From a virus (taxonomy: Duplodnaviria; Caudoviricetes): a stretch of DNA of 64,000 nucleotides. Both the position numbers and the translations under genes were made by a program. The notes under the pieces were generated by a model. The model was not told where the DNA came from. It ran no database searches and worked only from the letters and a program-made list of their open reading frames with translations. The DNA lies in the IMG/VR virus record IMGVR_UViG_3300031853_000019, positions 1-64,000 of that record, one strand, 5' to 3'. Positions 1,671 through 64,000 of this stretch are shown here, one piece after another (the first letter of the stretch is position 1; each line of letters opens with the position of its first letter).

Positions 1671-3173
1671 CTAGTCCACCTTGATTACCTCGTATCTATC
1701 GGCAAGAAGCACCTTCAGCATCATGTCTGTTGCAGTCAAACCAGCCATTACTGCTTCCATCTGTGACATTGAGAAGCCAGAGATGTAATTGAAGGAATCT
1801 CCAATCGCAGGAATGTTGTTTGTTCTAGCGTCTAAGTTCCAGAAGGTAACCTTAGGAAGCTTATAGCCATGAGCATTGAACTTCTTCTCCATGCGCTCAA
1901 GCAGAGTACCTACTGTTGCAGAGGTAACACCATCAAAGCGTTCAGTTCTCCATATACCGCCGCCACCGCAAGCTGCATCAAACTCCATATCGGAAAAGAT
2001 GTAAAGTCTTGCGGGAAGGTCGGTCTGGGATGCCTTAGTCTTGAGAGCAGTGTCTAAGATCAAGTCAAAGACCTTCTCAAGGTTAGTGTTCATGCCCCAG
2101 TCTGCCTGAATACATCTTTTTACCTTATCAACAATGTTATCTCCTTCAAACTCTACGAGCTGAGGGTTCGCGCTAAAGGTAATGAAGTGTCCAGCGAAAG
2201 GACCATGTGACTTCTCGGCTACATATGCCCCCATACCGACTGCCGCCGCTACAGGAGTACCATACATAGAGCCAGATACATCAACTACCGCAATAGCATT
2301 TTCCTCACGACCGCAGTAGTAATCCTTCAGGTTATCCCAATACTTCTGCATTGTTGCTTCAAAAACATCATCAGATATATCGTACCTATTCTTATAAAGA
2401 ATCTTATCAACAATATTAACAGGGTTAAGCACTGCTGCATTAACCTTAGTTGTCTTGCTCTCCATAAATGCCTTATATCTTGCGGCAGTTACTTCCTTAA
2501 CCGCAAAAGCATTTCTGTACTTCATGCCCGCAACAGAAGGAATCTTATCGAACTGGATTTCATCCCATCTATTTTCAGACATAAGTCTTTCAAGCACATT
2601 AATCTTCTCTCTAAGACTAGAAAGAATCTTTCTATAAGTCTTAGGGGACATATTAAACTGCTTCATGAAGTATCTAGCCATCTCCTTAGTAGTTGTGCTA
2701 GATGCGTTCTCAGAAGGCATCCACTTACCAAGAAGAGAAGGAACTTCACAATGAGTATCCTCAAGAAGCTGTCTGTGTACAATATCTCCCATAGTAGATA
2801 CAAGAGGAGTATTGTAACAAATCTTAATCAAATCATCCCATCTACCGAACTCAGGAATGACATTTAAGAACTTTGCAGCGATCTCTACATCGTTCTTAAT
2901 TAACCAGCGGTAAGCAACTCTGAAGAAGCGTCTTTCGCCCTGACCGCCACGTACATCACGAAGATAGAACAAGCACTTCATAGCGAGGTTCTTATCCTGG
3001 CGGTAAGCATCTCCGAAAAGTGCTTCTACTTCCTTATCTGTTCTATTGCGGTAAGCGCCGCCTATAGAGAACATATCCAAGACATGATCCAGCGTAGAGT
3101 TATGCTTAACCGCACCATTTTCGGTATATCCAAAGTTAGTTTCGTTCTTTAATCCATTTAAAAATGCTGACAT
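1671..3173 (-). CDS. DUF2828 / TROVE-like protein with C-terminal vWA domain (Ro60-like)
   Basis: TENGA, RDVRGGQGER, GRWDDL, KWMPSE motifs; MIDAS DVSGSM and SDMEF. Confidence 0.85.
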   Translation of the reverse strand: MSAFLNGLKNETNFGYTENGAVKHNSTLDHVLDMFSIGGAYRNRTDKEVEALFGDAYRQDKNLAMKCLFYLRDVRGGQGERRFFRVAYRWLIKNDVEIAAKFLNVIPEFGRWDDLIKICYNTPLVSTMGDIVHRQLLEDTHCEVPSLLGKWMPSENASSTTTKEMARYFMKQFNMSPKTYRKILSSLREKINVLERLMSENRWDEIQFDKIPSVAGMKYRNAFAVKEVTAARYKAFMESKTTKVNAAVLNPVNIVDKILYKNRYDISDDVFEATMQKYWDNLKDYYCGREENAIAVVDVSGSMYGTPVAAAVGMGAYVAEKSHGPFAGHFITFSANPQLVEFEGDNIVDKVKRCIQADWGMNTNLEKVFDLILDTALKTKASQTDLPARLYIFSDMEFDAACGGGGIWRTERFDGVTSATVGTLLERMEKKFNAHGYKLPKVTFWNLDARTNNIPAIGDSFNYISGFSMSQMEAVMAGLTATDMMLKVLLADRYEVIKVD

Positions 3174-3309: not shown

Positions 3310-4135
3310 AGTACCATGTAGGAGTTGAACCTACTTGCGCGGAGTGCATTAAAAATGCTTATAATAATTCCCATTCCTCCTTTGAATAATTATTAATATC
3401 ACTTTTCTTTCTTGGAAGGGAATAACTATCACACCATTTTCTTATTGCATTATCAGTTACTCCAAATATTTTTCCTATTTCTGTAAAAGGCTTTTCTCTT
3501 ATTAATTGTTTTAATTTTTCTCGATCTGGTCTTTCTATTACTTTTCTTCTAGTTTTATTAATACAAGATAGACATAACCCTTCTCTACTAATTATATTTC
3601 CACATTCTTTGCAAAAATATTTTTTTGTTTTGCATTGAGAAGAAATATTATATAACTCATCATCTGTCATTCTATAATAACTATTTAATATATTTTCTGC
3701 AAGATATTGAGTATCAGTAAGTTTAATTGTCTTTTGATTTGATGTTTCATCTACTGGAATTAAATAAACCTTATCTTTCCATACAGTTGCAAAATAATCT
3801 ATTTCATCAGAAGTATATTTATGCTTTGAATGATTACTACTTTTCATATTATTTTGAGTGCAACATTGAAAAGTAAAAGATGATTCATTATTTTGAATAG
3901 ATTTTTTAGTTTGAATTTTTAAAATTTCATAACCAGTATCAACAATTAAATCATATCTTGATGCATTGTAGCTAGGTATTGAAATATCAAAACCATATCT
4001 TAAAAATTCTTCTTGGACTTTTAATTCTATAATTTGCCCCTTAAATAAATTTAATCTACTTGGTTCCATTTTACATTTAGGAATTAAATAAGTTTTTTAA
4101 TGCAGTCCGCTGCATAGCCGTTCTGCCAATGATAC
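3310..4135 (-). tRNA. tRNA-Cys(GCA) split by a 755-nt insertion in the anticodon loop (5' half 4135-4101, 3' half 3345-3310)
   Basis: Halves join to GTATCAT/ATGGTAC acceptor, GCGGA-CTGCA|AC-TCCGC anticodon arm, GTAGG-TTCAACT-CCTAC T arm, U73 discriminator. Confidence 0.85.
3359..4069 (-). CDS. PD-(D/E)XK homing endonuclease (I-Ssp6803I-like) with C-terminal Zn finger and HTH, inside tRNA-Cys
   Basis: KGQIIE...SRYDLIVD...KIQTK...YTSDEIDYFA; CxxC...CxxC; IGKIFGVTDNAIRKW. Confidence 0.8.
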   Translation of the reverse strand: MEPSRLNLFKGQIIELKVQEEFLRYGFDISIPSYNASRYDLIVDTGYEILKIQTKKSIQNNESSFTFQCCTQNNMKSSNHSKHKYTSDEIDYFATVWKDKVYLIPVDETSNQKTIKLTDTQYLAENILNSYYRMTDDELYNISSQCKTKKYFCKECGNIISREGLCLSCINKTRRKVIERPDREKLKQLIREKPFTEIGKIFGVTDNAIRKWCDSYSLPRKKSDINNYSKEEWELL

Positions 4136-5184: not shown

Positions 5185-5194
5185 ATATTTTTAT

Positions 5195-5321
5195 TTACTA
5201 GACACGGTATAATATCTCTGAGGCTTTACCAATTAAGCTATAGAGTGAGTTGACTCTAGTGGGACTCGAACCCACAAAAATCAGACTTAGCACGATATGA
5301 ATTATTGCTGGCTGTGTCTAA
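5195..5321 (-). ncRNA. YrlA-like Y RNA: circularly permuted tRNA mimic closed by a CAGCAA stem
   Basis: TAGACAC/GTGTCTA end stem; TCTGA/TCAGA; T arm GTGGG-TTCGAGT-CCCAC placed BEFORE loop-closed acceptor TAGAGT-CAACTC-ACTCTA and D arm GCTT-AATTGGTA-AAGC. Confidence 0.75.
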
Positions 5322-5322
5322 G

Positions 5323-5394
5323 CTCCCCGAGTAGGACTCGAACCTACAACAGCTCGGTTAACAGCCGAGTGCTCTACCATTGAGCTACCGGGGA
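5323..5394 (-). tRNA. tRNA-Asn(GTT)
   Basis: Cloverleaf; CTCGG-CTGTTAA-CCGAG. Confidence 0.95.
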
Positions 5395-5444
5395 TCAAGA
5401 GCGGTTAGACTATATCTCAAACCTAACCGCTTTTGTTAGTTTAA

Positions 5445-6266
5445 TTAACCTAACAATGAAAGGACGCCTTGAGTAGACTGATTTGCCTGTGCAAGCATAG
5501 ACTGAGCAGCTTGCTGAAGAATATTATTCTTAGTGTAATTAGTCATCTCAGCAGCCATATCTGTATCACGAATCTGGCTTTCTGCAGATGTTAAATTTTC
5601 ACTATAATTCTTCAAATTATTAATTGTATATTCAAGTCTATTCTGTTTTGCGCCAAGAGAAGATCTTGCAGCGGAAACAGTCTTAATAGCATTAGTTACT
5701 CTGCTCATTGTAGCGGCTGCCGCACTGTGGCTATCAACCGCGATTGCAGATGCACCCGCAAGAGAAAGTCCTGATGTATCCATCTTTGCAATATCAATCT
5801 GCATATTTTCACCTGCATTAGCACCTACTTGAAGTTGCTTGCCAGTGAAAGAACCATCAAGAAGTTTAGTTCCATTGAACTGAGCCTTATTAGCAATAGA
5901 ATCAATCTCTGCCTGAAGTTCAGTCATTTCGTCTTTGATAGCATCTCTATCTTCATCTGCATTAATATCGTTAGCTGCCTTGTTAGACAATTCACCCATG
6001 CGCTGAAGAATAGAATGAATCTCATTAAGATTACCTTCTGCTGTCTGAATGGCGGAAATGCCATCCTCAGAGTTCTTAACTGCTTGATTGATACCACGGA
6101 TCTGATTTCTCATTTTCTCACTGATGGAGAGACCAGCTGCATCGTCTGCTGCACGGTTTACTCCAAAGCCAGAAGAAAGTTTCTCTGTGCTCTTTGCTAC
6201 TGCTTTCACATTCTGTGATAACATTCTGTTTGTATTTGCTGCTTGTAAATTGTGTTGTACTACCAT
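5445..6266 (-). CDS. fliC: flagellin (D0/D1 only, 273 aa), Lachnospiraceae-type
   Basis: MVVQHNLQAANTNRML...EKLSSG...AADDAAGLSISEKMRNQIRG...; C-terminus RSSLGAKQNRLE...SQIRDTDMA...AQANQSTQGVLSLLG; GGAGG RBS before ATG at 6266. Confidence 0.97.
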   Translation of the reverse strand: MVVQHNLQAANTNRMLSQNVKAVAKSTEKLSSGFGVNRAADDAAGLSISEKMRNQIRGINQAVKNSEDGISAIQTAEGNLNEIHSILQRMGELSNKAANDINADEDRDAIKDEMTELQAEIDSIANKAQFNGTKLLDGSFTGKQLQVGANAGENMQIDIAKMDTSGLSLAGASAIAVDSHSAAAATMSRVTNAIKTVSAARSSLGAKQNRLEYTINNLKNYSENLTSAESQIRDTDMAAEMTNYTKNNILQQAAQSMLAQANQSTQGVLSLLG

Positions 6267-6288
6267 AGTAATTACCTCCTTGTAAATA

Positions 6289-6308
6289 ATACTACTTCCT
6301 TGTAGTAT
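6289..6308 (-). promoter_or_regulatory. CsrA-type site: GGA in a hexaloop hairpin in the flagellin leader
   Basis: ATACTAC-AAGGAA-GTAGTAT; second ACAAGGAGG overlaps the RBS. Confidence 0.55.
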
Positions 6309-6345
6309 GTACTTTTTCATTGTTACTAGCGCGAACGCGCTTTAT

Positions 6346-6417
6346 CACCTCTACGGGACTTGAACCCAGTATCTGGAGATTGAGAGTCTCCTATCCTAGC
6401 CACTTAGACGAAGAGGC
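6346..6417 (-). tRNA. tRNA-Glu(CTC)
   Basis: Cloverleaf; GGAGA-CTCTCAA-TCTCC. Confidence 0.9.
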
Positions 6418-6422
6418 GTTAT

Positions 6423-6493
6423 CACTCCAGCGGGACTTGAACCCAGCATCTAAGCCTTGAAAGAGCTTTATCCTAGCCTTTAGAAGATGGAGC
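6423..6493 (-). tRNA. tRNA-Glu(TTC)
   Basis: Cloverleaf; AAGCT-CTTTCAA-GGCTT. Confidence 0.9.
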
Positions 6494-6645
6494 GTAGAGG
6501 GGAGCTATCCCATCAAATATATTTATTAATAAGATAGCTCTATTATAAATTACTTGTATTTAAGTTAAACCCTGTTTAGCATCTTTAGTTTCGCTATAAG
6601 TCTTGTGAGGTAAACGGGTTAGAAAAACATCTCAGACTGACACAA

Positions 6646-6717
6646 AGCTCCCCATGGGACTCGAACCCACAGTAACCTCATTACAAGTGAGGGGCATTAC
6701 CATTATGCTAAAGGAGC
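6646..6717 (-). tRNA. tRNA-Thr(TGT)
   Basis: Cloverleaf; CCTCA-CTTGTAA-TGAGG. Confidence 0.9.
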
Positions 6718-6893
6718 AAATAACCGAGTGAGTAGTTTCAACCTCACGCATCCTTGGCGGGTTCAACGAATCGTAACTAGGGTAGCTTACGCGGATTGGT
6801 TACCGCCGCCCTTTGTGGTGTCTCCCCACTGCTTCCCGCCATACAGGCTTTATTCTCTTCACGGCTTTTAATGCTTGCCTATCGGTTATTAAT

Positions 6894-7006
6894 ATGCGGG
6901 TAAGGATTTGCACCCTACATGATAAGCATTCCTACTTGTCCATTAAACGGATCTTCGTATCTTATCTAACAATAAGCCTTAGCGTTTACCTATTCCGCCA
7001 CCGCAA
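6894..7006 (-). ncRNA. tRNA-Leu-like RNA with an expanded, non-canonical central region
   Basis: TGGCGGAATAGGTAAACGC D arm, TAGGG-TGCAAAT-CCTTA T arm, TGCGG/CCGCA acceptor; about 60 nt insert, no normal anticodon arm. Confidence 0.55.
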
Positions 7007-7245
7007 ATGGTCTTTCCTAGTTATTGTCCTTCAGTCCCAACTGGCTGACAGTATAAGATAAGGGGAAAACCTCGAAGGGATTACATTGGAATGTTTCACA
7101 TCCCTTATCTTATTGGTTAAGGAGGTGGATATTTCAGACTCTCACCATTATTGATTCGTCCACTCTTCTGTTTATTGGATTTCTGTCATCTCTTAACCTT
7201 ACATATATATTATATAATAATTTTTTATAAATTTCAAATTTAAAA

Positions 7246-7318
7246 TGTGCCCGGTGGGATTTGAACCCACGATACCTGGATTAAAAGTCCAGTGCCATAA
7301 CCTCTAGGCGACGGGCAC
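7246..7318 (-). tRNA. tRNA-Lys(TTT)
   Basis: Cloverleaf; CTGGA-CTTTTAA-TCCAG. Confidence 0.93.
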
Positions 7319-7322
7319 TTAG

Positions 7323-7403
7323 TACTCCCGGTGGGACTCGAACCCACACGCTCTAAGCCTAGGATTTTAAGTCCTATATGTCTACCCATTCCATCACGGG
7401 AGC
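7323..7403 (-). tRNA. tRNA-Leu(TAA)
   Basis: Cloverleaf with long variable arm; TAGGA-CTTAAAA-TCCTA. Confidence 0.93.
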
Positions 7404-7411
7404 CTAATTAA

Positions 7412-7483
7412 TAGGGAGATTGGGACTTGAACCCAAAAGACAACCTTATCAGAGTTACATGATAACCTTTTCATCATCTCCCT
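7412..7483 (-). tRNA. tRNA-Ile(GAT)
   Basis: AGGGAGA/TCTCCCT acceptor; TAACT-CTGATAA-GGTTG (two G-U pairs). Confidence 0.8.
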
Positions 7484-7492
7484 TTAAAATAA

Positions 7493-7563
7493 CTGGGGTG
7501 CTGGGATTTGAACCCAGTCGCCAAGAGTCAAAGTCTTGTGTGCTACCTTTACACTACACCCCA
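7493..7563 (-). tRNA. tRNA-Gln(TTG)
   Basis: Cloverleaf; CAAGA-CTTTGAC-TCTTG. Confidence 0.93.
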
Positions 7564-7572
7564 ATATTAAAA

Positions 7573-7646
7573 TGGACATTCAGGGACTTGAACCCTAGAC
7601 CGATGGTTTATGAGACCATTGCTCTAACCAACTGAGCTAAATGTCC
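7573..7646 (-). tRNA. tRNA-Met/Ile2(CAT), elongator type
   Basis: Cloverleaf; ATGGT-CTCATAA-ACCAT. Confidence 0.9.
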
Positions 7647-7650
7647 ATAA

Positions 7651-7723
7651 CAGGCACCGTAGGACTTGAACCCACACCGTACAGTTTTGGAGACTGCCGT
7701 GCTACCATTTACACCAGATACCT
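7651..7723 (-). tRNA. tRNA-Trp(CCA)
   Basis: Cloverleaf; GCAGT-CTCCAAA-ACTGT. Confidence 0.9.
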
Positions 7724-7960
7724 ATAAACCCGTAAAGGGAAGTGAGTTTGAGTTATTGGCATATAAACCCTACATTCTTCTCAAAATACGCCTTTTCTAT
7801 GTCCAAAAAGAACACTTGTGTTAAATAAGCCATAGCCAGCACCAGCACCAGATTTTAACGAGTTTACTCTCGATAATGAATAAGAAACTTTTCTTCATAA
7901 ATACTTCATTTCTCATTCACTATAATTATTATATAATAATTTTTATTACTTTTCAAATAA

Positions 7961-8040
7961 TGCGGGCGGAGGGACTTGAACCCTCACGGTTTCCCACGAG
8001 TTCCTAAGGCTCGCGTGTCTGCCAATTCCACCACACCCGC
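7961..8040 (-). tRNA. tRNA-Leu(TAG)
   Basis: Cloverleaf with variable arm; CGAGC-CTTAGGA-ACTCG. Confidence 0.92.
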
Positions 8041-56232: not shown

Positions 56233-59200
56233 ATGGCTCAAGGTGGAAGAATAGATTATACCATTGGGTTTAATGTTGATAAATCTGGGTTACAGAATAT
56301 TCAAAAAGAGCTGGCAAAGATTAATCAAATGTCAGCTAAAGATATACAAAAAGTAAATCCTGCTTTAAATGTAAATGAAGCTAAAAGCGTATTAATGAAA
56401 GCTAAAATTGCAGCTAATGAAGTTCAAAAAGCGATGCAGGAAGCTTTTAATCCAACTATTGGTGTTACTAATATAGATAAATTACAATCTTCTTTAAAAA
56501 GGTTAAACTTAGCTGAAATTCAAAAAAGATTTTCGGCTATTGGACCTACTGGGCAAAAAGCTTTTTTAGATATATCTAAATCTGCTTTAACTACTAATGT
56601 TCAGTTAAAACAAACTAGTAAATTAATGGATAAAGTTGGAGAAACTCTTACCAACACTATTAAATGGCAGTTTTCTTCAAGTATTGTTAATAGATTTATA
56701 GGGACGGTTCAACAAGCAGTTGGATATGTTCAACATTTAGATAGTTCATTAAATGATATTCGTATTGTAACTGGTAAATCTGCTGATGAGATGGAAGTAT
56801 TTGCTCAAAGGGCAAATAAAGCAGCACAATCACTTGGTAAATCTACGACAGATTATACTGAAGCTTCTTTAATTTACTATCAACAGGGTCTAGCTGATGA
56901 CGAAGTTGCAGCAAGAGCCGAAACTACTTTAAAGGCAGCTAATGTAACTGGACAGTCTACAGCTGCAGTTTCTGAAGAGTTGACTGCTGTATGGAATGGT
57001 TATAAAGTAGCCACAGAAGATACTGAGGCAGCTGTTGATAAACTTGCAGCAGTTGCTGCAACAACTGCATCCGATCTTGAAGAATTATCAACTGGTATGT
57101 CTAAAGTTGCATCTGCAGCAAATAGCATGGGTGTTGATATGGATCAACTCAATGCTCAGATTGCTACTATTATATCTGTTACTCGTCAAGCACCTGAATC
57201 TGTTGGTACAGCATTAAAAACTATTTATGCTCGTATGTCAGACTTAAAACTTGGTGATTCAGATGAAGATGGATTAAAATTGGGTGATGTATCCAGCTCT
57301 CTTGAAAAAGTTGGAATTAATATTCTTGATGCAAATGGTAATTTGCGGGAAATGGGAGATGTTATTGAAGAGGTAGCTGGAAAATGGGATACCTGGAATA
57401 AGGCAGAACAGGCAGCAATTGCGCAATCCTTAGCTGGTAAAAGACAATATAATAATCTTGTTGCATTATTTGATAACTGGGATATGTATTCCAAAGCATT
57501 GGATACATCCCGTAATTCTCTTGGTACTTTACAAAGTCAACAAGACATTTATATGGAGTCTACTGAGGCTCATATTCAGATGTTAAAAACTGAATTGGAA
57601 GATTTATATGACTCTATTATAGATGAGGATGCAATTAAAGGTGTTTCTGATGGTTTAAGAAATATATTAAATATTATAACCAATATTGTTGATGCTATTG
57701 GAGGCGGAAAAACTTTAATTACTGGAATTATTGCTTTTGTTGGTAGTAAACTAGGAAAGCAATTAGCTAATACTTTAGCTCCTTTTATTAATAATATACA
57801 AAATGCGAAGACAAACGCAGAAGCATTAGCTCAAGTATATAAAAATTTACAAACTTATGCAACAGCAAATAGTTTTGGAGATAAAGCTACTGAAGCTATG
57901 CGCGAAGTACAAGAAGAAACTTCTCAGTATTGGCATCTAATGTCTGAAGAAGAAATTAATGCTAGTATGGAAGCGACTCGCGAACTTGGTACATGGGTTC
58001 AAAAGCAAGAAGAAGTAAAGAAAACAACTGAAGCTTTAGAGAATTATATAGCAGTTGCGGGAACTGCAACTCAAAAAAATGCTCTTAAGCAAGGTGGTCA
58101 AATTTTTAATCAAGGTGGAGGAGAAGCATCCTCTCTTAGTGTTGGAGAAGTAAGTAAAACTGTATTAGAAGAAAAAAATAAAATTGATACTTTAAAGAAA
58201 GCATATACAGATCTTGAAAAAGAAATCGAAAAGGTTAATAATAGCAAAGGATTTATAGGGAATAATGAAGAAGAGTTAAAAGAAGTAAGTAAAAATGTTG
58301 ATAATTTAAAGAAAAAGCTTACTAGTTTATCAACCGCTCTTAATACTGTTAAACAAAATAATGAAGGTCTACTTCCCCCAGGTACATTTGAAGACCTTGA
58401 AAGAGGTATTGAACAGTTACAGTCTAGACTTGAATCTTTACGTTCTGGAAATAGACTAATGATACTTTCTGATAATGACCGTGAAGAGATGAAAAGAATT
58501 GAAGAAGTATTAAATGAATTAATTGCAAAATATCAAGAATATACTAAGGTAGTAAAAGAAGCGGCGGAAGCAGAGGATCATGTTAATAGTCTTAGAGGCA
58601 AGTTTCAAAATAACAATGAAGAACTTGCTCTTCAAGATAAAATTAATGGATATAGTCAATTAGTTGGAGCAATATCAAGTTATGCATTTGCTTTACAAAG
58701 TTTAACTAATATAGGCTCTATTTTTAATAATGATGATTTAACTGATGGAGAAAAAATTTTGCAAATAGTGTCAGCTTTAGCTATTGCTATACCAATGCTT
58801 GGAGGGGCGTATAAAAATCTTACTTTAGGTTTAAATGCTCTTCTTAAAGCTAAACAGGCAAATGCAGCTGCATCTGCTGCAAATGCGGTTGCAGATAACG
58901 CAGCAAAGAAAGCGTCTAATGGGTGGATTCAAGCAATATTGGGACAGACTTCTGCAGCAAAAGGTTTATCTACCGCTTTAAAAGCAGTTTCTATAACTAT
59001 GATTGCTGTTACCGCTGCGATAACCGCAATCTCTTTTATCTCTAGTCAATATAAAAAACATCTTGAAGAAGTTGCCGAAAAAACTGAGCAAACAGCTCAA
59101 GCTCAACAAGAAATTGTTGACAAGGCAAAAGAAGAATCAGAGTCAATAAATAATCTTCGTAAAAATTATGAAGAATTAAATAGATTGCGTGATGAGAATG

Positions 59201-62200
59201 GAACTTTTACAGATGAACAGAAGCAAAAGATTAATGATCTTTTAAAATCATATGACGATGAACATTTAAAAGTTTTAGCTTTAGTTGAGGATTATGATGA
59301 ACTCCAAAGGGCTATTAGAGAAGCGAATGCTGAAAAATTAAAAACTTTAGGAGAAGGACAAGAAGAATTACTAGAAGATGAGTTTTTAGTTTTACAAGCT
59401 AAGATAGATGAAAATAAAGGTGGAATTGGTGACATAATTAAAGCAGACATGGCAGGTTCTGCATATAACCTAGCATTAAAGTATAACAAAGATTTAGAAG
59501 TTAATACAAAATTAGGACAAAATTATTTTAAAGATTTACAATCTCAATTAAATCCTGAAGATTTTAAAGCGTTAATTCAAGATTTAAAACAAACATATCC
59601 TGAGTATGTAGAGATTTTAAACGATATTTACACTGCTGCAGAAGGTGCTCAAAAAACTTCTAAAGATTTTGCTATACAAGAATTTTTATCTGATAAAGAT
59701 ATAAAAAACGTACAAGAGTATGATAATGCAGTAGAAGATGTTGCCAAAATAAAAGTTGATGGGCAGGAAATTGGTAAAGAGTATGCTAGATCTTTCTTAG
59801 CGGGAGAATATGAAGAATTTTCTGTCGGCTCCAAGCAAAAAGAAGAGATTGCTGATATACTTGGAGAAGATTTATTTAACCAAATTCAAAATAAATATGA
59901 TTCATATACAGAAGACCAAAAGAATTTCTTATATAGTAATGCACAGTTAGCAGCAGATATAGGAAATGTCGATAAATTTTGGGATTTATATTCTGCAAGG
60001 AAAGAAAATCAAGAGAGTATTTCTTTAGTTGAAGGCTATTTAGATAAAACAGAGTTAAAAGATGATGATATTAATGCTCTTTTCAGTAATGCAAGCTTCG
60101 CAGATAGTTTTGGTTATACTCAAGAAGAATTTACAGATATGTCTCATAGAGAGCGAATGAATGCACTTGATGAATATTATACCGAAAGTTTTAAGAAAGA
60201 ACAAGCATATCAACAATTAGTGCAAGATGGCATCAATAAAACTGGAGAAGAAGTTCAACAAAAGCTTAATGAAGAGAGACAAGCCTTTGATAAAAACATT
60301 GAGGACTTTCAAGCATATCTAAGTGAAGAATTTGGAGAGAAATTTGCAACAAAAATTTATAATGATCTTTTTAATAATGAAGAAGTTTTTAATGCTTTTA
60401 ATAAAAAGGTTAATCATGAAAAATTAACAGACGAAGAAAAACAAGTTTTAAAAGATGCTGATTTAGATAGCATTTTAAATCCAATTCGGTATAAAAAAGC
60501 TCAAAAGGCACTCGAAAAATATAAAGAGACTACTGGTCAAACCGGAAAAACTATTAAATCTGTTACAAAAATTACAGATAATTTTGCAGCGAGCCAAGAA
60601 GAATTAGAAGGAATTTTAAAGAATAATACATCTGCAGCATTTAAAATGAATGCAATGATGAAAAATCAAAAGAATAAGATTAAAGAATTAAATGCTGAAA
60701 TAGATGATATTCAATCTAATTATCAATCTTTACAGTCTATTGTTGAGGACTATAATGAAGATGGTTATATTTCTTTAGATAATGTTCAAAAATTAATGGA
60801 GATGGACACCAAATATGTAGCCACTCTTAAATTTGAAGGAGACCAATTATCTATTAATGATGAGGCTTATCAAAATTTAACTCAAGCAGAAGCTCAAAAT
60901 CTTAGAATTGAAGCAACTGAACTATTTTTAAAAGAACTTCTTGCGATTCAAAATGGAGAGACTGCTGCTAGTGCGACGGTATTAACTGCTTCTACTTACG
61001 AAACGGCAGAAGCTATGGGAGTGTTAGAGTCTGCAGCAGATAGAACGACTAGTTCTTTAGTTAGATTACAACAAGTTCAAGCGGCAATGAAAGTTGATCC
61101 AACAGCAACTAAAAATGCTATGCAAGGCTATTTAAATAGACTTGCTATGATAGATAATTTTGCTAATCAACCAGTGGCTAGGGCAATTGGCAGTGGAGGC
61201 TCAGGTTCTGGAGGCGGTGGAGGTTCCGAGAAGGATCCTGAGCATGAAGAGTACCTCGAGCGCGAAGCAGATATTTACCGCACGATTAATGAAGAACTTG
61301 AGCAAATTGAATCTACATTAGAGCGTATCCAAAACATTAATGACCATGAATGGGGCATTGATGCTCAAAAGACTTTAGAGCAAGAAAACAAGTTGTTAGA
61401 TCAGCAGTTAGAGAAGTTGCAGGAGAAAAAGAAACTGCAAGAGCGTGATCTCTCTACCCGCAGAAAACAACTTGAAGATGTAGGTGTTAACTTCTCAGCA
61501 GATGGCTCCGCAATGACTAATGCGGAAAGCACCTTGGATGCAATGTATGCGCATTATAACTCTATGGTAGATATGTATAATGCTATGTCCGCCGCAGAAC
61601 AAGAAACCTACAAAGCTAATTTAGAGGCTGAAAAAGATAGAATTGATAAAGTTGAACAGAAAATTGATGATTATGAATCAACCTTCTCAGATTATCAATC
61701 TACTCTTGATTCTTTAATAGATGTTCATTATCAGCAAATTGAAAATACTGTTAAACAGTTCAATAATATGGTGGACGTACATCTTGAACTTGATGAAGCT
61801 AAAGAGGAATGGAATGACTTCTGGTTTGATGTAGTTCAAGATATTGAAGATACAGACTTTACAAAGCAAATTGAAAAGAGTGTTAAAAAGCTAGAAGTTT
61901 TAATTGGTACTACTTTAAGTAATACTGATAGCGAAGTAAGTATTTTAACAAATCATTTGCTTGAAACTGTATCTGAAGTACAAGATCAAATTGCATCCGC
62001 AAATCGTGGCGGAGAAGCAAGTATCTTCGGTGATGATAGTGCTTTATCTAAGGAGACTCTTGAGAATTACAGAGATCAATTAATGGAAGCGCTTACTTCC
62101 GCAAAAGAGGAGTTAGATAATATATCTGATAGTTATTTAGATATGTTAGATAGCGCGCAAGATAAGATAGATAAACAGGTCAAAGCTTGGGAGTCTATTG

Positions 62201-64000
62201 GAGAGCACCTTGAACATAATGTGTCACTGATTAAGTTGATTAGTGGAGATAAGAGTTATGAAGCTCTTGATAAAATATACCAGCAACAGTATCAAAATAA
62301 TTTACAATTATTAACTACTCAGCGTACTAGTATGGAATACTGGCAGAATATGATTGATAAATATGCTAACTTACTTCAGACCACTGAGGAAGGTAGTAAA
62401 GAATGGAAAACATATTCTGAAGCATATGAAAAAGCTAGTATGAATTACAAAGAAGCAGTTAGTAACTTAGATAAGACTATTGAAGACGCTCTTAATAAAC
62501 TTGAAGAGTGGAAGAAGAATCAGTTAGATGCTATCAATGAGACTTTTGATAGAACTTTATCTAGTAATTTAGGTTTAGACCAGCTTGAAAAAGAATGGAA
62601 TGTAATTAATGATAGCGCAAGTAGATATTTTGATAATGTTGAACGAGCACTTGAGATGGAAGGTCTTGCGGATGCTTTTGACAAGGTTATTGAAAATACT
62701 AAAGAAGCATCTAGAGCACAGCAAGAACTTAACCAGATGCGGGATGAAGAAATCGCTAGATTAAATCAAAAGACTAAGTTAAGTCAGTTTGATATAGATG
62801 AAGTTAAAGCGAGACTTGAAATTAGAAAACAAGAACTTGCTTTAGAAGATGCTCAAAAGAACAAGACTAATTTAAGATTAAGAAGAGATAGTCAAGGTAA
62901 CTATAATTATCAGTACACTGGTGATGATAGTCAGATTGAAGAAGCATCAGAAGGATTACTTTCTGCAAAGAAAGAATGGTATGAATTAGTTAAGAATAGA
63001 AATATTGATTTAGCTAAGGCAGTACTTGAGAACAGAAAGAATCTACAATCTGAGCTTGCTGCTCTTGATGATATGTACTTCGAGAATGATGATGCACGAA
63101 GAGCTAAGCAGATTGAGATTATTAATAAGTATGCAGAGCGTGAAAAGGACATCATGGGGGATGCGGAAAGCGCGAAGCAAATATTCTTTGATGGAACTGC
63201 AAAATTCTTTGCAGATGTTGAAAATAATACAGTATTACCACAGTGGAATACTACCATTGAAGGAATGATTGATGCTTGGTCTGGTGGCGGTGAAGATAGT
63301 TTCACCAATGCAGTTAAACGCGGTATTGAAGAAATTGAGAAGGTTCAAGATGAATTTAATATTAGAACCGAAGAAATTCTTACCAAAGCTGGTGTTAATT
63401 ATATTAAGTTAAAGGAAACTGGTATTGATCCTACTATTGATTCTTTAAATGAGTTAACTGAATCTAACGAAGAGTTAGAAAGTGCTCTTGAAGAAGTCAA
63501 TGACCAGTTAATTGAGCAAGAAAGTTATTTAAGAGACTGTGAAGAAGCTTATAATAACTTGAAAGATGCTGCAGTCAATGCGATTGCACAAGCTAATAGT
63601 GCTTTAAATACATTAGCACAAACTGCTATTAATACTAGTCAGCAAGTGCAAGCTGCTATAAGTGCAGCACAGTCTGCAGCCGCTATTATGAGTGAAATAG
63701 CTGCTACTGCAAGTGCACTTGGTGGTGGAGGACTGGGAGGATCCAGTCCTGGTTCTGGTAGAACATTCTCTGAAATATTAAGAGGTGGAGCAAATCAAGC
63801 TGGTAGATATGGAGGTTCCTCAGGATATGAAAGACCTGGAATTAGTCCTTCAAGTACAACTGGATTAGATAGTCTTAGAAATGCAGGTAAAAATAATGCT
63901 AAAAATCAAAACCTTATAATACAGTCTTTAAAAAATAGTATCCGAAGTATTGCAAGGAATTTTGCACCAACAATGTCAGAACAAACTATAGAACAATATG
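56233..64000 (+). CDS. tail tape measure protein (TP901-type core), more than 2580 aa, runs off window end
   Basis: GGAGG RBS, MAQGGRIDYTIGFNVD...; LDSSLNDIRIVTGKSADEM...KAANV...LKLG core; absent from ORF track, consistent with no stop in window. Confidence 0.9.
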   Translation, partial: MAQGGRIDYTIGFNVDKSGLQNIQKELAKINQMSAKDIQKVNPALNVNEAKSVLMKAKIAANEVQKAMQEAFNPTIGVTNIDKLQSSLKRLNLAEIQKRFSAIGPTGQKAFLDISKSALTTNVQLKQTSKLMDKVGETLTNTIKWQFSSSIVNRFIGTVQQAVGYVQHLDSSLNDIRIVTGKSADEMEVFAQRANKAAQSLGKSTTDYTEASLIYYQQGLADDEVAARAETTLKAANVTGQSTAAVSEELTAVWNGYKVATEDTEAAVDKLAAVAATTASDLEELSTGMSKVASAANSMGVDMDQLNAQIATIISVTRQAPESVGTALKTIYARMSDLKLGDSDEDGLKLGDVSSSLEKVGINILDANGNLREMGDVIEEVAGKWDTWNKAEQAAIAQSLAGKRQYNNLVALFDNWDMYSKALDTSRNSLGTLQSQQDIYMESTEAHIQMLKTELEDLYDSIIDEDAIKGVSDGLRNILNIITNIVDAIGGGKTLITGIIAFVGSKLGKQLANTLAPFINNIQNAKTNAEALAQVYKNLQTYATANSFGDKATEAMREVQEETSQYWHLMSEEEINASMEATRELGTWVQKQEEVKKTTEALENYIAVAGTATQKNALKQGGQIFNQGGGEASSLSVGEVSKTVLEEKNKIDTLKKAYTDLEKEIEKVNNSKGFIGNNEEELKEVSKNVDNLKKKLTSLSTALNTVKQNNEGLLPPGTFEDLERGIEQLQSRLESLRSGNRLMILSDNDREEMKRIEEVLNELIAKYQEYTKVVKEAAEAEDHVNSLRGKFQNNNEELALQDKINGYSQLVGAISSYAFALQSLTNIGSIFNNDDLTDGEKILQIVSALAIAIPMLGGAYKNLTLGLNALLKAKQANAAASAANAVADNAAKKASNGWIQAILGQTSAAKGLSTALKAVSITMIAVTAAITAISFISSQYKKHLEEVAEKTEQTAQAQQEIVDKAKEESESINNLRKNYEELNRLRDENGTFTDEQKQKINDLLKSYDDEHLKVLALVEDYDELQRAIREANAEKLKTLGEGQEELLEDEFLVLQAKIDENKGGIGDIIKADMAGSAYNLALKYNKDLEVNTKLGQNYFKDLQSQLNPEDFKALIQDLKQTYPEYVEILNDIYTAAEGAQKTSKDFAIQEFLSDKDIKNVQEYDNAVEDVAKIKVDGQEIGKEYARSFLAGEYEEFSVGSKQKEEIADILGEDLFNQIQNKYDSYTEDQKNFLYSNAQLAADIGNVDKFWDLYSARKENQESISLVEGYLDKTELKDDDINALFSNASFADSFGYTQEEFTDMSHRERMNALDEYYTESFKKEQAYQQLVQDGINKTGEEVQQKLNEERQAFDKNIEDFQAYLSEEFGEKFATKIYNDLFNNEEVFNAFNKKVNHEKLTDEEKQVLKDADLDSILNPIRYKKAQKALEKYKETTGQTGKTIKSVTKITDNFAASQEELEGILKNNTSAAFKMNAMMKNQKNKIKELNAEIDDIQSNYQSLQSIVEDYNEDGYISLDNVQKLMEMDTKYVATLKFEGDQLSINDEAYQNLTQAEAQNLRIEATELFLKELLAIQNGETAASATVLTASTYETAEAMGVLESAADRTTSSLVRLQQVQAAMKVDPTATKNAMQGYLNRLAMIDNFANQPVARAIGSGGSGSGGGGGSEKDPEHEEYLEREADIYRTINEELEQIESTLERIQNINDHEWGIDAQKTLEQENKLLDQQLEKLQEKKKLQERDLSTRRKQLEDVGVNFSADGSAMTNAESTLDAMYAHYNSMVDMYNAMSAAEQETYKANLEAEKDRIDKVEQKIDDYESTFSDYQSTLDSLIDVHYQQIENTVKQFNNMVDVHLELDEAKEEWNDFWFDVVQDIEDTDFTKQIEKSVKKLEVLIGTTLSNTDSEVSILTNHLLETVSEVQDQIASANRGGEASIFGDDSALSKETLENYRDQLMEALTSAKEELDNISDSYLDMLDSAQDKIDKQVKAWESIGEHLEHNVSLIKLISGDKSYEALDKIYQQQYQNNLQLLTTQRTSMEYWQNMIDKYANLLQTTEEGSKEWKTYSEAYEKASMNYKEAVSNLDKTIEDALNKLEEWKKNQLDAINETFDRTLSSNLGLDQLEKEWNVINDSASRYFDNVERALEMEGLADAFDKVIENTKEASRAQQELNQMRDEEIARLNQKTKLSQFDIDEVKARLEIRKQELALEDAQKNKTNLRLRRDSQGNYNYQYTGDDSQIEEASEGLLSAKKEWYELVKNRNIDLAKAVLENRKNLQSELAALDDMYFENDDARRAKQIEIINKYAEREKDIMGDAESAKQIFFDGTAKFFADVENNTVLPQWNTTIEGMIDAWSGGGEDSFTNAVKRGIEEIEKVQDEFNIRTEEILTKAGVNYIKLKETGIDPTIDSLNELTESNEELESALEEVNDQLIEQESYLRDCEEAYNNLKDAAVNAIAQANSALNTLAQTAINTSQQVQAAISAAQSAAAIMSEIAATASALGGGGLGGSSPGSGRTFSEILRGGANQAGRYGGSSGYERPGISPSSTTGLDSLRNAGKNNAKNQNLIIQSLKNSIRSIARNFAPTMSEQTIEQY

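Follow-up and report, generated by a model that had tools for sequence, protein, structure and literature searches.

A flagellin gene with a CsrA-type leader in the tRNA array of an apparently virulent tailed phage

The DNA analyzed here is a stretch of 64,000 nucleotides, hereafter the window, that corresponds to positions 1 to 64,000 of the 82,748-bp IMG/VR virus record IMGVR_UViG_3300031853_000019 (Duplodnaviria; Caudoviricetes). Its minus strand encodes a flagellin of 273 residues, without internal stop codons, which is embedded in an array of 19 tRNAs plus one extra tRNA identified by Rfam (Table 1). The N-terminal part of the protein matches the full profile of the Pfam family Flagellin_N (PF00669; residues 3-141, profile positions 1-139, E 8.9e-42), and the C-terminal part matches Flagellin_C (PF00700; residues 188-272, E 1.6e-28). 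The protein can be aligned end to end with flagellins whose filament structures have been solved: 9hpz (1-272, E 7.5e-90), 6t17, and Hag of Bacillus subtilis (5wjt). The phage flagellin is formed of domains D0 and D1 only, without enlarged outer domains. Thus, the translation, the Pfam matches, and the filament-structure alignments confirm an earlier claim, made in a preliminary description of the sequence, that an intact flagellin with both termini is positioned between tRNA-Glu and tRNA-Asn. The strong ribosome-binding site noted there is also present, as AAGGAGG located 8 nucleotides upstream of the ATG. A version of 291 residues that starts from the ATG at position 6320 was rejected. Because this start is inside the leader and lacks a ribosome-binding site, and because every host homologue of the flagellin begins with MVVQHN, the protein of 273 residues is the correct call.

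The window is recognizable as phage DNA by PHROGs for terminase, portal, and virion proteins, which are located at 42-55 kb. CheckV estimates the completeness of the record at 61%, and the record ends inside the gene of the DNA polymerase III alpha subunit (PolIII-alpha). The 82.7-kb record does not contain detectable genes for FliD, FliS, FliW, or CsrA, nor a match to PF07282 that would indicate a TnpB-type gene. A tyrosine integrase is also absent from the record, whereas serine recombinases were not searched for. The claim that the phage carries no other flagellar genes therefore holds for the record but is limited to 61% of the genome, because the record stops in PolIII-alpha and the closest relative has fliD just beyond this point.

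At least eight further assemblies, which are independent and originate from different studies, contain the same flagellin with identical junctions to the tRNAs. Two Logan contigs from other sequencing runs (L007 and L008) encode a 99.6% identical protein with the same flanking tRNAs at 94-97% DNA identity. The exact protein is present on 14 contigs; the places listed for it represent eight samples and include phage contigs of 52.8 and 94.6 kb, the latter from ERZ27256883. These two contigs share the neighbors of the flagellin with the window: on one side, phage open reading frames with and without a carbohydrate-binding module (CBM), and on the opposite side, genes for the DUF2828/DUF7788 protein, for a metallophosphoesterase, and for a GH25 lysin. 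The leader and the 3′ junction are alike in all nine copies with readable DNA. Since identical junctions recur in at least eight other assemblies, the flagellin is a real phage gene and not a chimera with host DNA, a possibility that the preliminary description had raised.

Strong purifying selection acts on the phage flagellin along its entire sequence. Pairwise comparisons of the copies from the window, L007, and L008 contain 28, 18, and 26 synonymous versus 1, 1, and 0 non-synonymous codon differences. The corresponding ratios of non-synonymous to synonymous substitution rates (dN/dS) are 0-0.015 at dS values of 0.11-0.17 (NG86), and dN/dS is approximately 0 in both terminal parts of the protein as well as in the surface region between them. 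The nine copies, six of which were retrieved by exact protein identity, have 58 segregating sites. Fifty-six of these are at codon position 3, and residue 163 (D/N) is the only variable one. A chimeric assembly, or a functionless neutral passenger that was acquired recently, would be compatible with the sporadic occurrence of flagellin in the phage family and with the mosaic character of the tRNA region, where homing-endonuclease genes come and go. However, the chimera is already contradicted by the recurrent junctions, and a passenger would not be expected to combine dN/dS near 0, a phage-like base composition, a dS to the hosts of about 1.4, and an invariant non-coding leader and 3′ hairpin. 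The probability of this explanation is practically negligible.

The best matches of the phage flagellin among 8,000 scored candidates are 80-91% identical, and the named ones are flagellins from metagenome-assembled genomes (MAGs) of Lachnospiraceae. The nearest host flagellins belong to complete late flagellar loci of uncultured ruminant Lachnospiraceae, which have the order FlgN, FlgK, FlgL, FliW, CsrA, FlaG, FliD, FliS, FlgN, and one to two flagellins, followed by a Maf/NeuB-type glycosylation island. A tree of 123 sequences places the phage copies inside a well-supported clade that also contains these host genes. The preliminary description had spoken of a gut bacterium; the samples and MAG names of the relatives indicate a ruminant rather than a human gut. 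The nearest host copy is 81% identical in nucleotides and 91% in amino acids, with a dS of about 1.4. The GC content at third codon positions (GC3) of the phage flagellin is 0.29, which is within the range of the structural genes of the phage (0.19-0.31) and below that of the nearest hosts (0.53-0.57). Because of this divergence and the phage-like GC3, either the transfer dates back some time or the donor is unsampled. Nesting among host genes, a composition shifted towards that of the phage, and purifying selection within the phage were all found, as for host-derived cargo under selection. Four loci initially considered as further phage copies (P0003, P0007, P0017, and P0124) all turned out to be host loci.

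Residues 1-93 and 196-273 of the phage flagellin are nearly identical to those of the hosts. The differences are concentrated in residues 94-195, which are exposed in a D0-D1 filament. This region contains 15 synonymous versus 27 non-synonymous codon changes between host species, with dN/dS of about 0.3, whereas it is frozen in the phage, where the changes are 8 versus 1 (Fisher p 0.007). One explanation of the gene is that the phage subunit alters the filament surface so that flagellum-binding phages, possibly including its own progeny, no longer adsorb to infected or lysing cells. The position of the differences and their diversification among hosts are in line with such exclusion, as are the flagellin glycosylation islands of the host loci, which are a common phage receptor determinant. 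However, the comparison is with the nearest hosts rather than with the flagellin of the true host, so that a different surface is not established. The serine and threonine content of the surface region is unremarkable (10 residues versus a median of 13, range 8-17), and a loss of glycosylation sites in the exposed region was rejected on the basis of this count. Furthermore, the old filament would persist through a short lytic cycle. A study of the prophage flagellin FliC_P found no flagellotropic phage among more than 1,100 screened and judged exclusion unlikely (PMC13418256). Exclusion is therefore regarded as a quite unlikely function of the phage flagellin.

The preliminary description also drew attention to a segment that corresponds to the TLR5 contact of flagellin. 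The segment LQRMGELSNK is present at residues 87-96, but the hosts read LQRMGELANK, so that it represents host sequence with a single A-to-S change and does not support an altered recognition of the infected bacterium by TLR5. A preprint indicates that the TLR5 activity of Lachnospiraceae flagellins is not readable from that motif alone (bioRxiv 10.1101/2022.04.12.488020). An effect on animal innate immunity has a precedent in FliC_P, which lowers TLR5 signaling and improves gut engraftment of Enterobacter (PMC13418256). However, the effect of FliC_P depended on large outer domains (PMC13418256), which the D0-D1 phage flagellin lacks, and because the phage family looks virulent, there would be no long-lived lysogen to benefit. 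This explanation is very improbable.

The flagellin gene is preceded by a leader that resembles those of the host genes. In the host clade, the leaders are formed of a GC-rich 5′ hairpin, followed by TAGTACAT, a 7-bp hairpin with an AAGGA loop, TTCAAGGAGG, and the ATG. Every element of this architecture is present in the phage leader. The hairpin with the AAGGA loop is paired in 99.2% of cells of an alignment of 35 host and phage leaders, and five of its seven pairs covary; the observed covariation score was reached by none of 500 shuffles. The phage stem, ATACTAC/GTAGTAT, is four double compensatory changes away from the host consensus. RNAalifold identified both hairpins in 29 host leaders, with compensatory changes in four of five pairs of the first and three of seven pairs of the second, and single-sequence folds agree with the leader hairpins. 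The ribosome-binding site CAAGGAGG, which overlaps with a GGA motif, is unchanged across the 35 leaders. Among the nine phage copies, the segment from the AAGGA-loop hairpin to the ATG varies only by an insertion of 2 nucleotides in two copies. The 50-nucleotide 3′ region that includes the hairpin is invariant, in comparison with 20% variable third codon positions. The AAGGA-loop hairpin is also retained by many other phage-borne flagellins. The 15-nucleotide 5′ hairpin was considered as a repeated phage motif and rejected, since it occurs only once in the window.

The leader of B. subtilis hag contains two CsrA sites. In this bacterium, CsrA occludes the hag ribosome-binding site, and FliW, which is freed upon export of Hag, relieves the block at an approximately 1:1:1 stoichiometry (PMC6529632). 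Both features of a flagellin mRNA controlled by CsrA and FliW, a GGA in a hairpin loop and a GGA at the ribosome-binding site, are present in the phage leader. Its layout is that expected of such an mRNA, and binding of CsrA is predicted. The retention of the CsrA-type leader suggests that translation of the phage copy may stay coupled to export. Genes for FliW and CsrA are encoded in the nearest host loci but were not found in the phage record. In two relatives, a conserved leader that contains two GGA motifs, AAAGGATTAG ... ATCAAGGAGG (L176, 6140-6187; L010, 10860-10902), is located ahead of the phage fliD, which may be under control of the same kind as the flagellin.

The presence of the leader also allows a different explanation, in which the phage flagellin acts inside the cell as a regulatory decoy. 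The protein would serve as a sink for FliW, the leader RNA as a sink for CsrA, or both, upsetting the 1:1:1 balance of Hag, FliW, and CsrA. Synthesis of host flagellin or other CsrA targets would be shut off or deregulated, and incorporation into the filament would be irrelevant. Both GGA sites are kept in the phage leader, the C-terminal region is nearly identical to that of the host, and the gene is located behind a consensus promoter in a tRNA operon, all of which would suit a decoy. In B. subtilis, the module is hypersensitive to the stoichiometry of its components, and over-accumulation of Hag disturbs cell architecture (PMC6529632). The pairing of csrA with flagellin on two other viral contigs also speaks for a decoy. 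One is L154, where csrA is directly upstream of a large flagellin (5761-5931 and 5944-7965; Pfam E 5e-19) in the complete 124.7-kb viral genome G009, and the other is L150, where csrA is likewise directly upstream of a large flagellin (5611-5874 and 6001-7452; Pfam E 2e-17). Because G009 has an integrase, it is probably a temperate phage. However, the C-terminus or the leader alone would suffice as a sink, yet dN/dS is close to 0 in all three parts of the protein, the surface region and both termini. Relatives encode FliD with or without an adjoining flagellin, and this extracellular cap protein makes sense only for filament assembly. The net effect of a decoy is also unclear, because flagellin and leader would titrate opposite arms of the loop. 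A decoy is considered unlikely but not negligible.

The gene is too close to tRNA-Glu to be preceded by a promoter of its own, because the first leader hairpin begins 3 nucleotides past the 3′ end of this tRNA. The nearest promoter-like site upstream on the flagellin strand is TTGAAA-17-TATAAT at 7237-7209, and identical hexamers at two other positions subdivide the array, giving three such sites (Table 1). Between the 7209-7237 site and the flagellin, the minus strand contains no terminator-like site. As stated previously, there is no recognizable sigma-28 promoter: a sigma-28 -10 box is absent near the flagellin, and the only CCGATA is located 620 nucleotides upstream at 6885, without a convincing -35 element. 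We infer that the flagellin is co-transcribed with tRNA-Thr, the extra tRNA, and tRNA-Glu from the 7237-7209 site. Processing of the tRNAs would then free a flagellin mRNA with the 5′ and 3′ hairpins as its ends. The 3′ hairpin is not homologous to host terminators. In some phage-like contigs, the flagellin is positioned behind a sigma-28-type promoter, such as TAAAGTTT-N11-GCCGATAA in L147 (identical to L002; approximately 1990-2071). Similar -10 boxes are present in L145 and in L140/L141, and the flagellin of the window is without such a promoter.

Table 1. Coordinates of the flagellin gene and of surrounding features in the window
Feature	Position	Strand	Evidence or remark
Flagellin coding sequence	5445-6266	-	273 residues; coordinates include the stop codon
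Ribosome-binding site ACAAGGAGG with embedded GGA	6275-6283	-	CsrA BS2-type site; invariant in 35 leaders
7-bp hairpin ATACTAC/GTAGTAT, loop AAGGAA	6289-6308	-	CsrA BS1-type site; covariation and fold; invariant in nine phage copies
5′ leader hairpin GCGCG/CGCGC	6328-6341	-	fold; occupies the place of the covarying host 5′ hairpin
3′ hairpin	5396-5435	-	directly before tRNA-Asn; -16.1 kcal/mol, z -4.55; without a clear U-tract
tRNA-Asn(gtt)	5322-5394	-	immediately downstream of flagellin; ARAGORN and Rfam
tRNA-Glu(ctc)	6345-6418	-	ARAGORN and Rfam; 3′ end 3 nucleotides before the first leader hairpin
Extra tRNA missed by ARAGORN	6422-6494	-	Rfam tRNA 39.6 bits, gathering score 29
tRNA-Thr(tgt)	6646-6717	-	first tRNA of the predicted transcription unit
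Promoter-like site TTGAAA-17-TATAAT	7237-7209	-	sigma-70 type; 11 of 12 consensus matches
Site with identical hexamers	7956-7928	-
Site with identical hexamers	5184-5156	-
YrlA (Y RNA-like) match	5188-5305	-	Rfam 38.9 bits, below the gathering score of 69; adjoins tRNA-Asn
Endonuclease gene, PD-(D/E)XK/HNH type	3359-4069	-
DUF2828/DUF7788 protein	1671-3173	-	500 residues; PHROG 850 'RNA-binding protein'; Ro60-like
Giant open reading frame	56233-63999	+	more than 2,589 residues; 3′ of the structural module; continues past the window end

The surroundings of the gene contain several other features. A weak match to a Y RNA-like element adjoins tRNA-Asn, and a gene for a Ro60-like DUF2828/DUF7788 protein is positioned 3′ of the tRNA array. 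Homologues of this protein mark a set of phages of approximately 135 kb with large tRNA arrays. Endonuclease genes of the PD-(D/E)XK/HNH type are present in the window and in L007 (706-1323), L199 (7129-7725), and L201 (277-1035 and 3107-3727). Their positions in the tRNA region differ between near-identical phage variants, so that they look like mobile homing endonucleases and the region like a mosaic hot-spot. There is no conserved empty site for comparison among the relatives without flagellin, because the order of tRNAs is shuffled between them. Some related phages encode a tRNA with the anticodon CTA (amber suppressor; 'Pyl' according to ARAGORN) and an odd tRNA with the four-base anticodon TAAA, and the flagellin frame of the viral genome G010 contains one in-frame TAG. 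These observations (L014/L016, 3456-3530; L018, 6139-6237; L019, 6604-6702; G010 C1, 38814-39227) are hints of possible stop-codon recoding in some related phages. Besides the giant open reading frame of the window, one of 2,053 residues is located downstream of the structural module in L175 (593-6754).

A scan of IMG/VR with a flagellin alignment identified 36 viral flagellin loci, whereas a search with the single protein found only three distant ones. Among the 36 are members of the same phage family (L001, L003, L131, L134, and L133). In L010, L001, L003, L131, and L134, the flagellin is located beside PolIII-alpha. In L010, a flagellin that is 84% identical to that of the window is positioned together with FliD between an SF1 helicase and PolIII-alpha; its PolIII-alpha, guanylate kinase, and NrdD share 78-85% of amino acids with those at the end of the record. 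L001 and L003 have flagellin at the same site as L010, L134 has flagellin and FliD there, and the flagellin of L131 is beside PolIII-alpha in a complete genome of 141,935 bp with terminal repeats. L133 encodes flagellin and FliD, with no match to the neighboring replication genes within the stretch fetched. The closest relative, L176 (79% nucleotide and 88% amino acid identity), has FliD upstream of PolIII-alpha and no flagellin there. FliD is thus beside PolIII-alpha in three relatives (L010, L134, and L176), in two of which it is accompanied by flagellin (L010 and L134). The identity of PolIII-alpha and NrdD across the relatives that carry flagellin or FliD is 78-88%. Four relatives with complete or near-complete genomes were searched for a tyrosine integrase, though not for serine recombinases; none has one, and the phage family therefore looks virulent. 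Comparison of 20 kb of the window with cultured-phage records by megablast gave no match, and a tblastn search of these records with the flagellin found only short or unannotated ones, the best with 49% identity.

The flagellins of the family fall with different host lineages. In the tree with host representatives, those of the window and L010 group with hosts of the L004/L009 type, whereas those of L001, L131, L133, and L134 fall in a Butyrivibrio-like clade. Forcing the phage flagellins into one group, which was defined after the tree was seen, costs 335 log-likelihood units and is rejected (approximately unbiased test, p 8e-60). The lack of monophyly therefore points to repeated capture, or replacement, from the current host.

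The best reading of these results is that the gene encodes a functional structural flagellin of the Hag/FliC type that would use the export, assembly, and CsrA-FliW control of its host. Its termini, the CsrA-type leader, and FliD in relatives make it plausible that the phage flagellin is linked to the filament of the host and to FliW-CsrA. Selection over the whole protein, its match to the hosts, and FliD in relatives make it fit a working subunit compatible with host export, chaperone, cap, and filament, and its termini, near-identical to those of the hosts, indicate that it could be exported by the flagellar type III system and polymerized. We estimate at about 0.6 the probability that a functional D0-D1 flagellin was captured from a host and has been kept by apparently virulent tailed phages of approximately 135-140 kb that infect ruminant-gut Lachnospiraceae, with the following mechanism. 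Transcription from the sigma-70-type promoter in the tRNA polycistron would uncouple expression from the flagellar sigma factor of the host, and processing of tRNA-Glu and tRNA-Asn would leave an mRNA that begins with the 5′ hairpin and terminates in the 3′ hairpin. Host CsrA would bind to the AAGGA loop and the ribosome-binding site, and host FliW would lift the repression during flagellin export, so that translation of the phage copy would be coupled to export like that of the host's own gene. With the help of a chaperone, the phage flagellin would then be exported by the flagellar type III apparatus of the host and polymerize into the host filament. Least certain is the benefit: in the infected cell, the filament might keep growing or be re-surfaced, which could sustain motility and dispersal during the takeover of host expression, or change the filament surface.

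Several points weigh against this reading. All steps, from promoter use and tRNA-punctuated processing through CsrA binding to export and incorporation, are predictions from sequence. The best host match reaches only 91% in amino acids and 81% in nucleotides. The apparent amino acid conservation is inflated by the retrieval of six of the nine copies by exact protein identity, although this bias leaves the conservation of non-coding elements and the comparison with L007 and L008 unaffected. Flagellin is lacking in five other relatives of approximately 130-140 kb (CheckV 67-100%) and at 16 PolIII-alpha loci, which were found via the Ro60-like gene or PolIII-alpha; since most relatives are without it, flagellin is dispensable cargo. 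Lastly, the gain from a new filament in a lytic cycle is not obvious.

In the literature searched, the only other described phage-encoded flagellins are FliC_P of prophages that carry TldR. The preliminary statement that flagellin is not a usual phage cargo is overstated in view of these published prophages, the 36 IMG/VR loci, and a match of the phage flagellin to PHROG 16088. FliC_P is encoded by temperate phages such as FR-phi of Enterobacter sp. BIDMC93 (PMC13418256; bioRxiv 10.1101/2023.11.30.569447), and its incorporation into the filament of infected cells in place of the host subunit has been demonstrated (PMC13418256). Both systems have a phage-borne flagellin that depends on the host flagellar apparatus, a dependence that the sequence predicts in the present case. 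However, the FliC_P system belongs to lambda-like prophages of Enterobacteriaceae, whereas the phage described here is large, apparently virulent, and has a Lachnospiraceae host. FliC_P is paired with TldR, a TnpB-derived RNA-guided repressor of host fliC; here, there is no PF07282 match in the 61% complete record and the neighbors are tRNAs, and the retained CsrA-type leader would be the control element instead. FliC_P has enlarged outer domains in contrast to the D0-D1 protein, and its phages are temperate, whereas no tyrosine integrase is present in the record or in the complete and near-complete relatives.

Tandem chromosomal flagellins of uncultured ruminant Lachnospiraceae are another close parallel. 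Their second copy (L004/L197) is 91% identical in amino acids, equal in length, and has the same leader architecture. However, it belongs to a complete late flagellar locus with a glycosylation island behind it, whereas the phage copy is in a tRNA array. The GC3 values are 0.53 and 0.29, respectively, the 3′ ends and the sequences upstream of the leader are unrelated, and there are approximately 20 substitutions in the exposed region. The phage gene also resembles the Hag-FliW-CsrA module of B. subtilis (PMC6529632) and Clostridioides difficile (PMC8523840) in its leader GGA motifs, one of which is at the ribosome-binding site. Further similarities are the conserved flagellin C-terminus, which is the partner of FliW, and the presence of fliW-csrA in the nearest hosts. 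The phage record differs from this module in that it contains only the target, the leader and flagellin, without fliW or csrA. Lytic phages are known to carry composition-adapted copies of heavily used host proteins that are under purifying selection and repeatedly exchanged with hosts, such as cyanophage psbA. In comparison with psbA-type genes, the gene described here encodes a motility filament rather than a metabolic protein and is located within a tRNA operon.

Among the proteins of the flagellum, flagellin is the most abundant; it also serves phages as a receptor and is a major target of immunity. The gene described here extends the idea of phage flagellins to large, apparently virulent phages of ruminant-gut Lachnospiraceae. 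It would have a different control logic, in which sigma-28 and TldR are replaced by a promoter of the tRNA operon and a retained leader of CsrA type; the retention of the host leader by a phage flagellin is newly described here. The known case is further extended by the filament cap FliD in relatives and by repeated capture from matching hosts. A more general proposal, tentative and judged at somewhat less than even odds, is that large virulent phages of motile gut Clostridia rebuild the filament of the dying cell. They would do so with their own flagellin and, in relatives, FliD, using a tRNA-punctuated mRNA, the CsrA-FliW export checkpoint of the host, to which the gene would be connected via the retained host leader, and re-capture of the gene from each new host lineage for compatibility. 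If the phage flagellin is incorporated into the filament, the motility of infected cells would be a phage-controlled trait. The phage leaders would also be short, naturally occurring sequences on which the control by CsrA and FliW in Clostridia could be examined.

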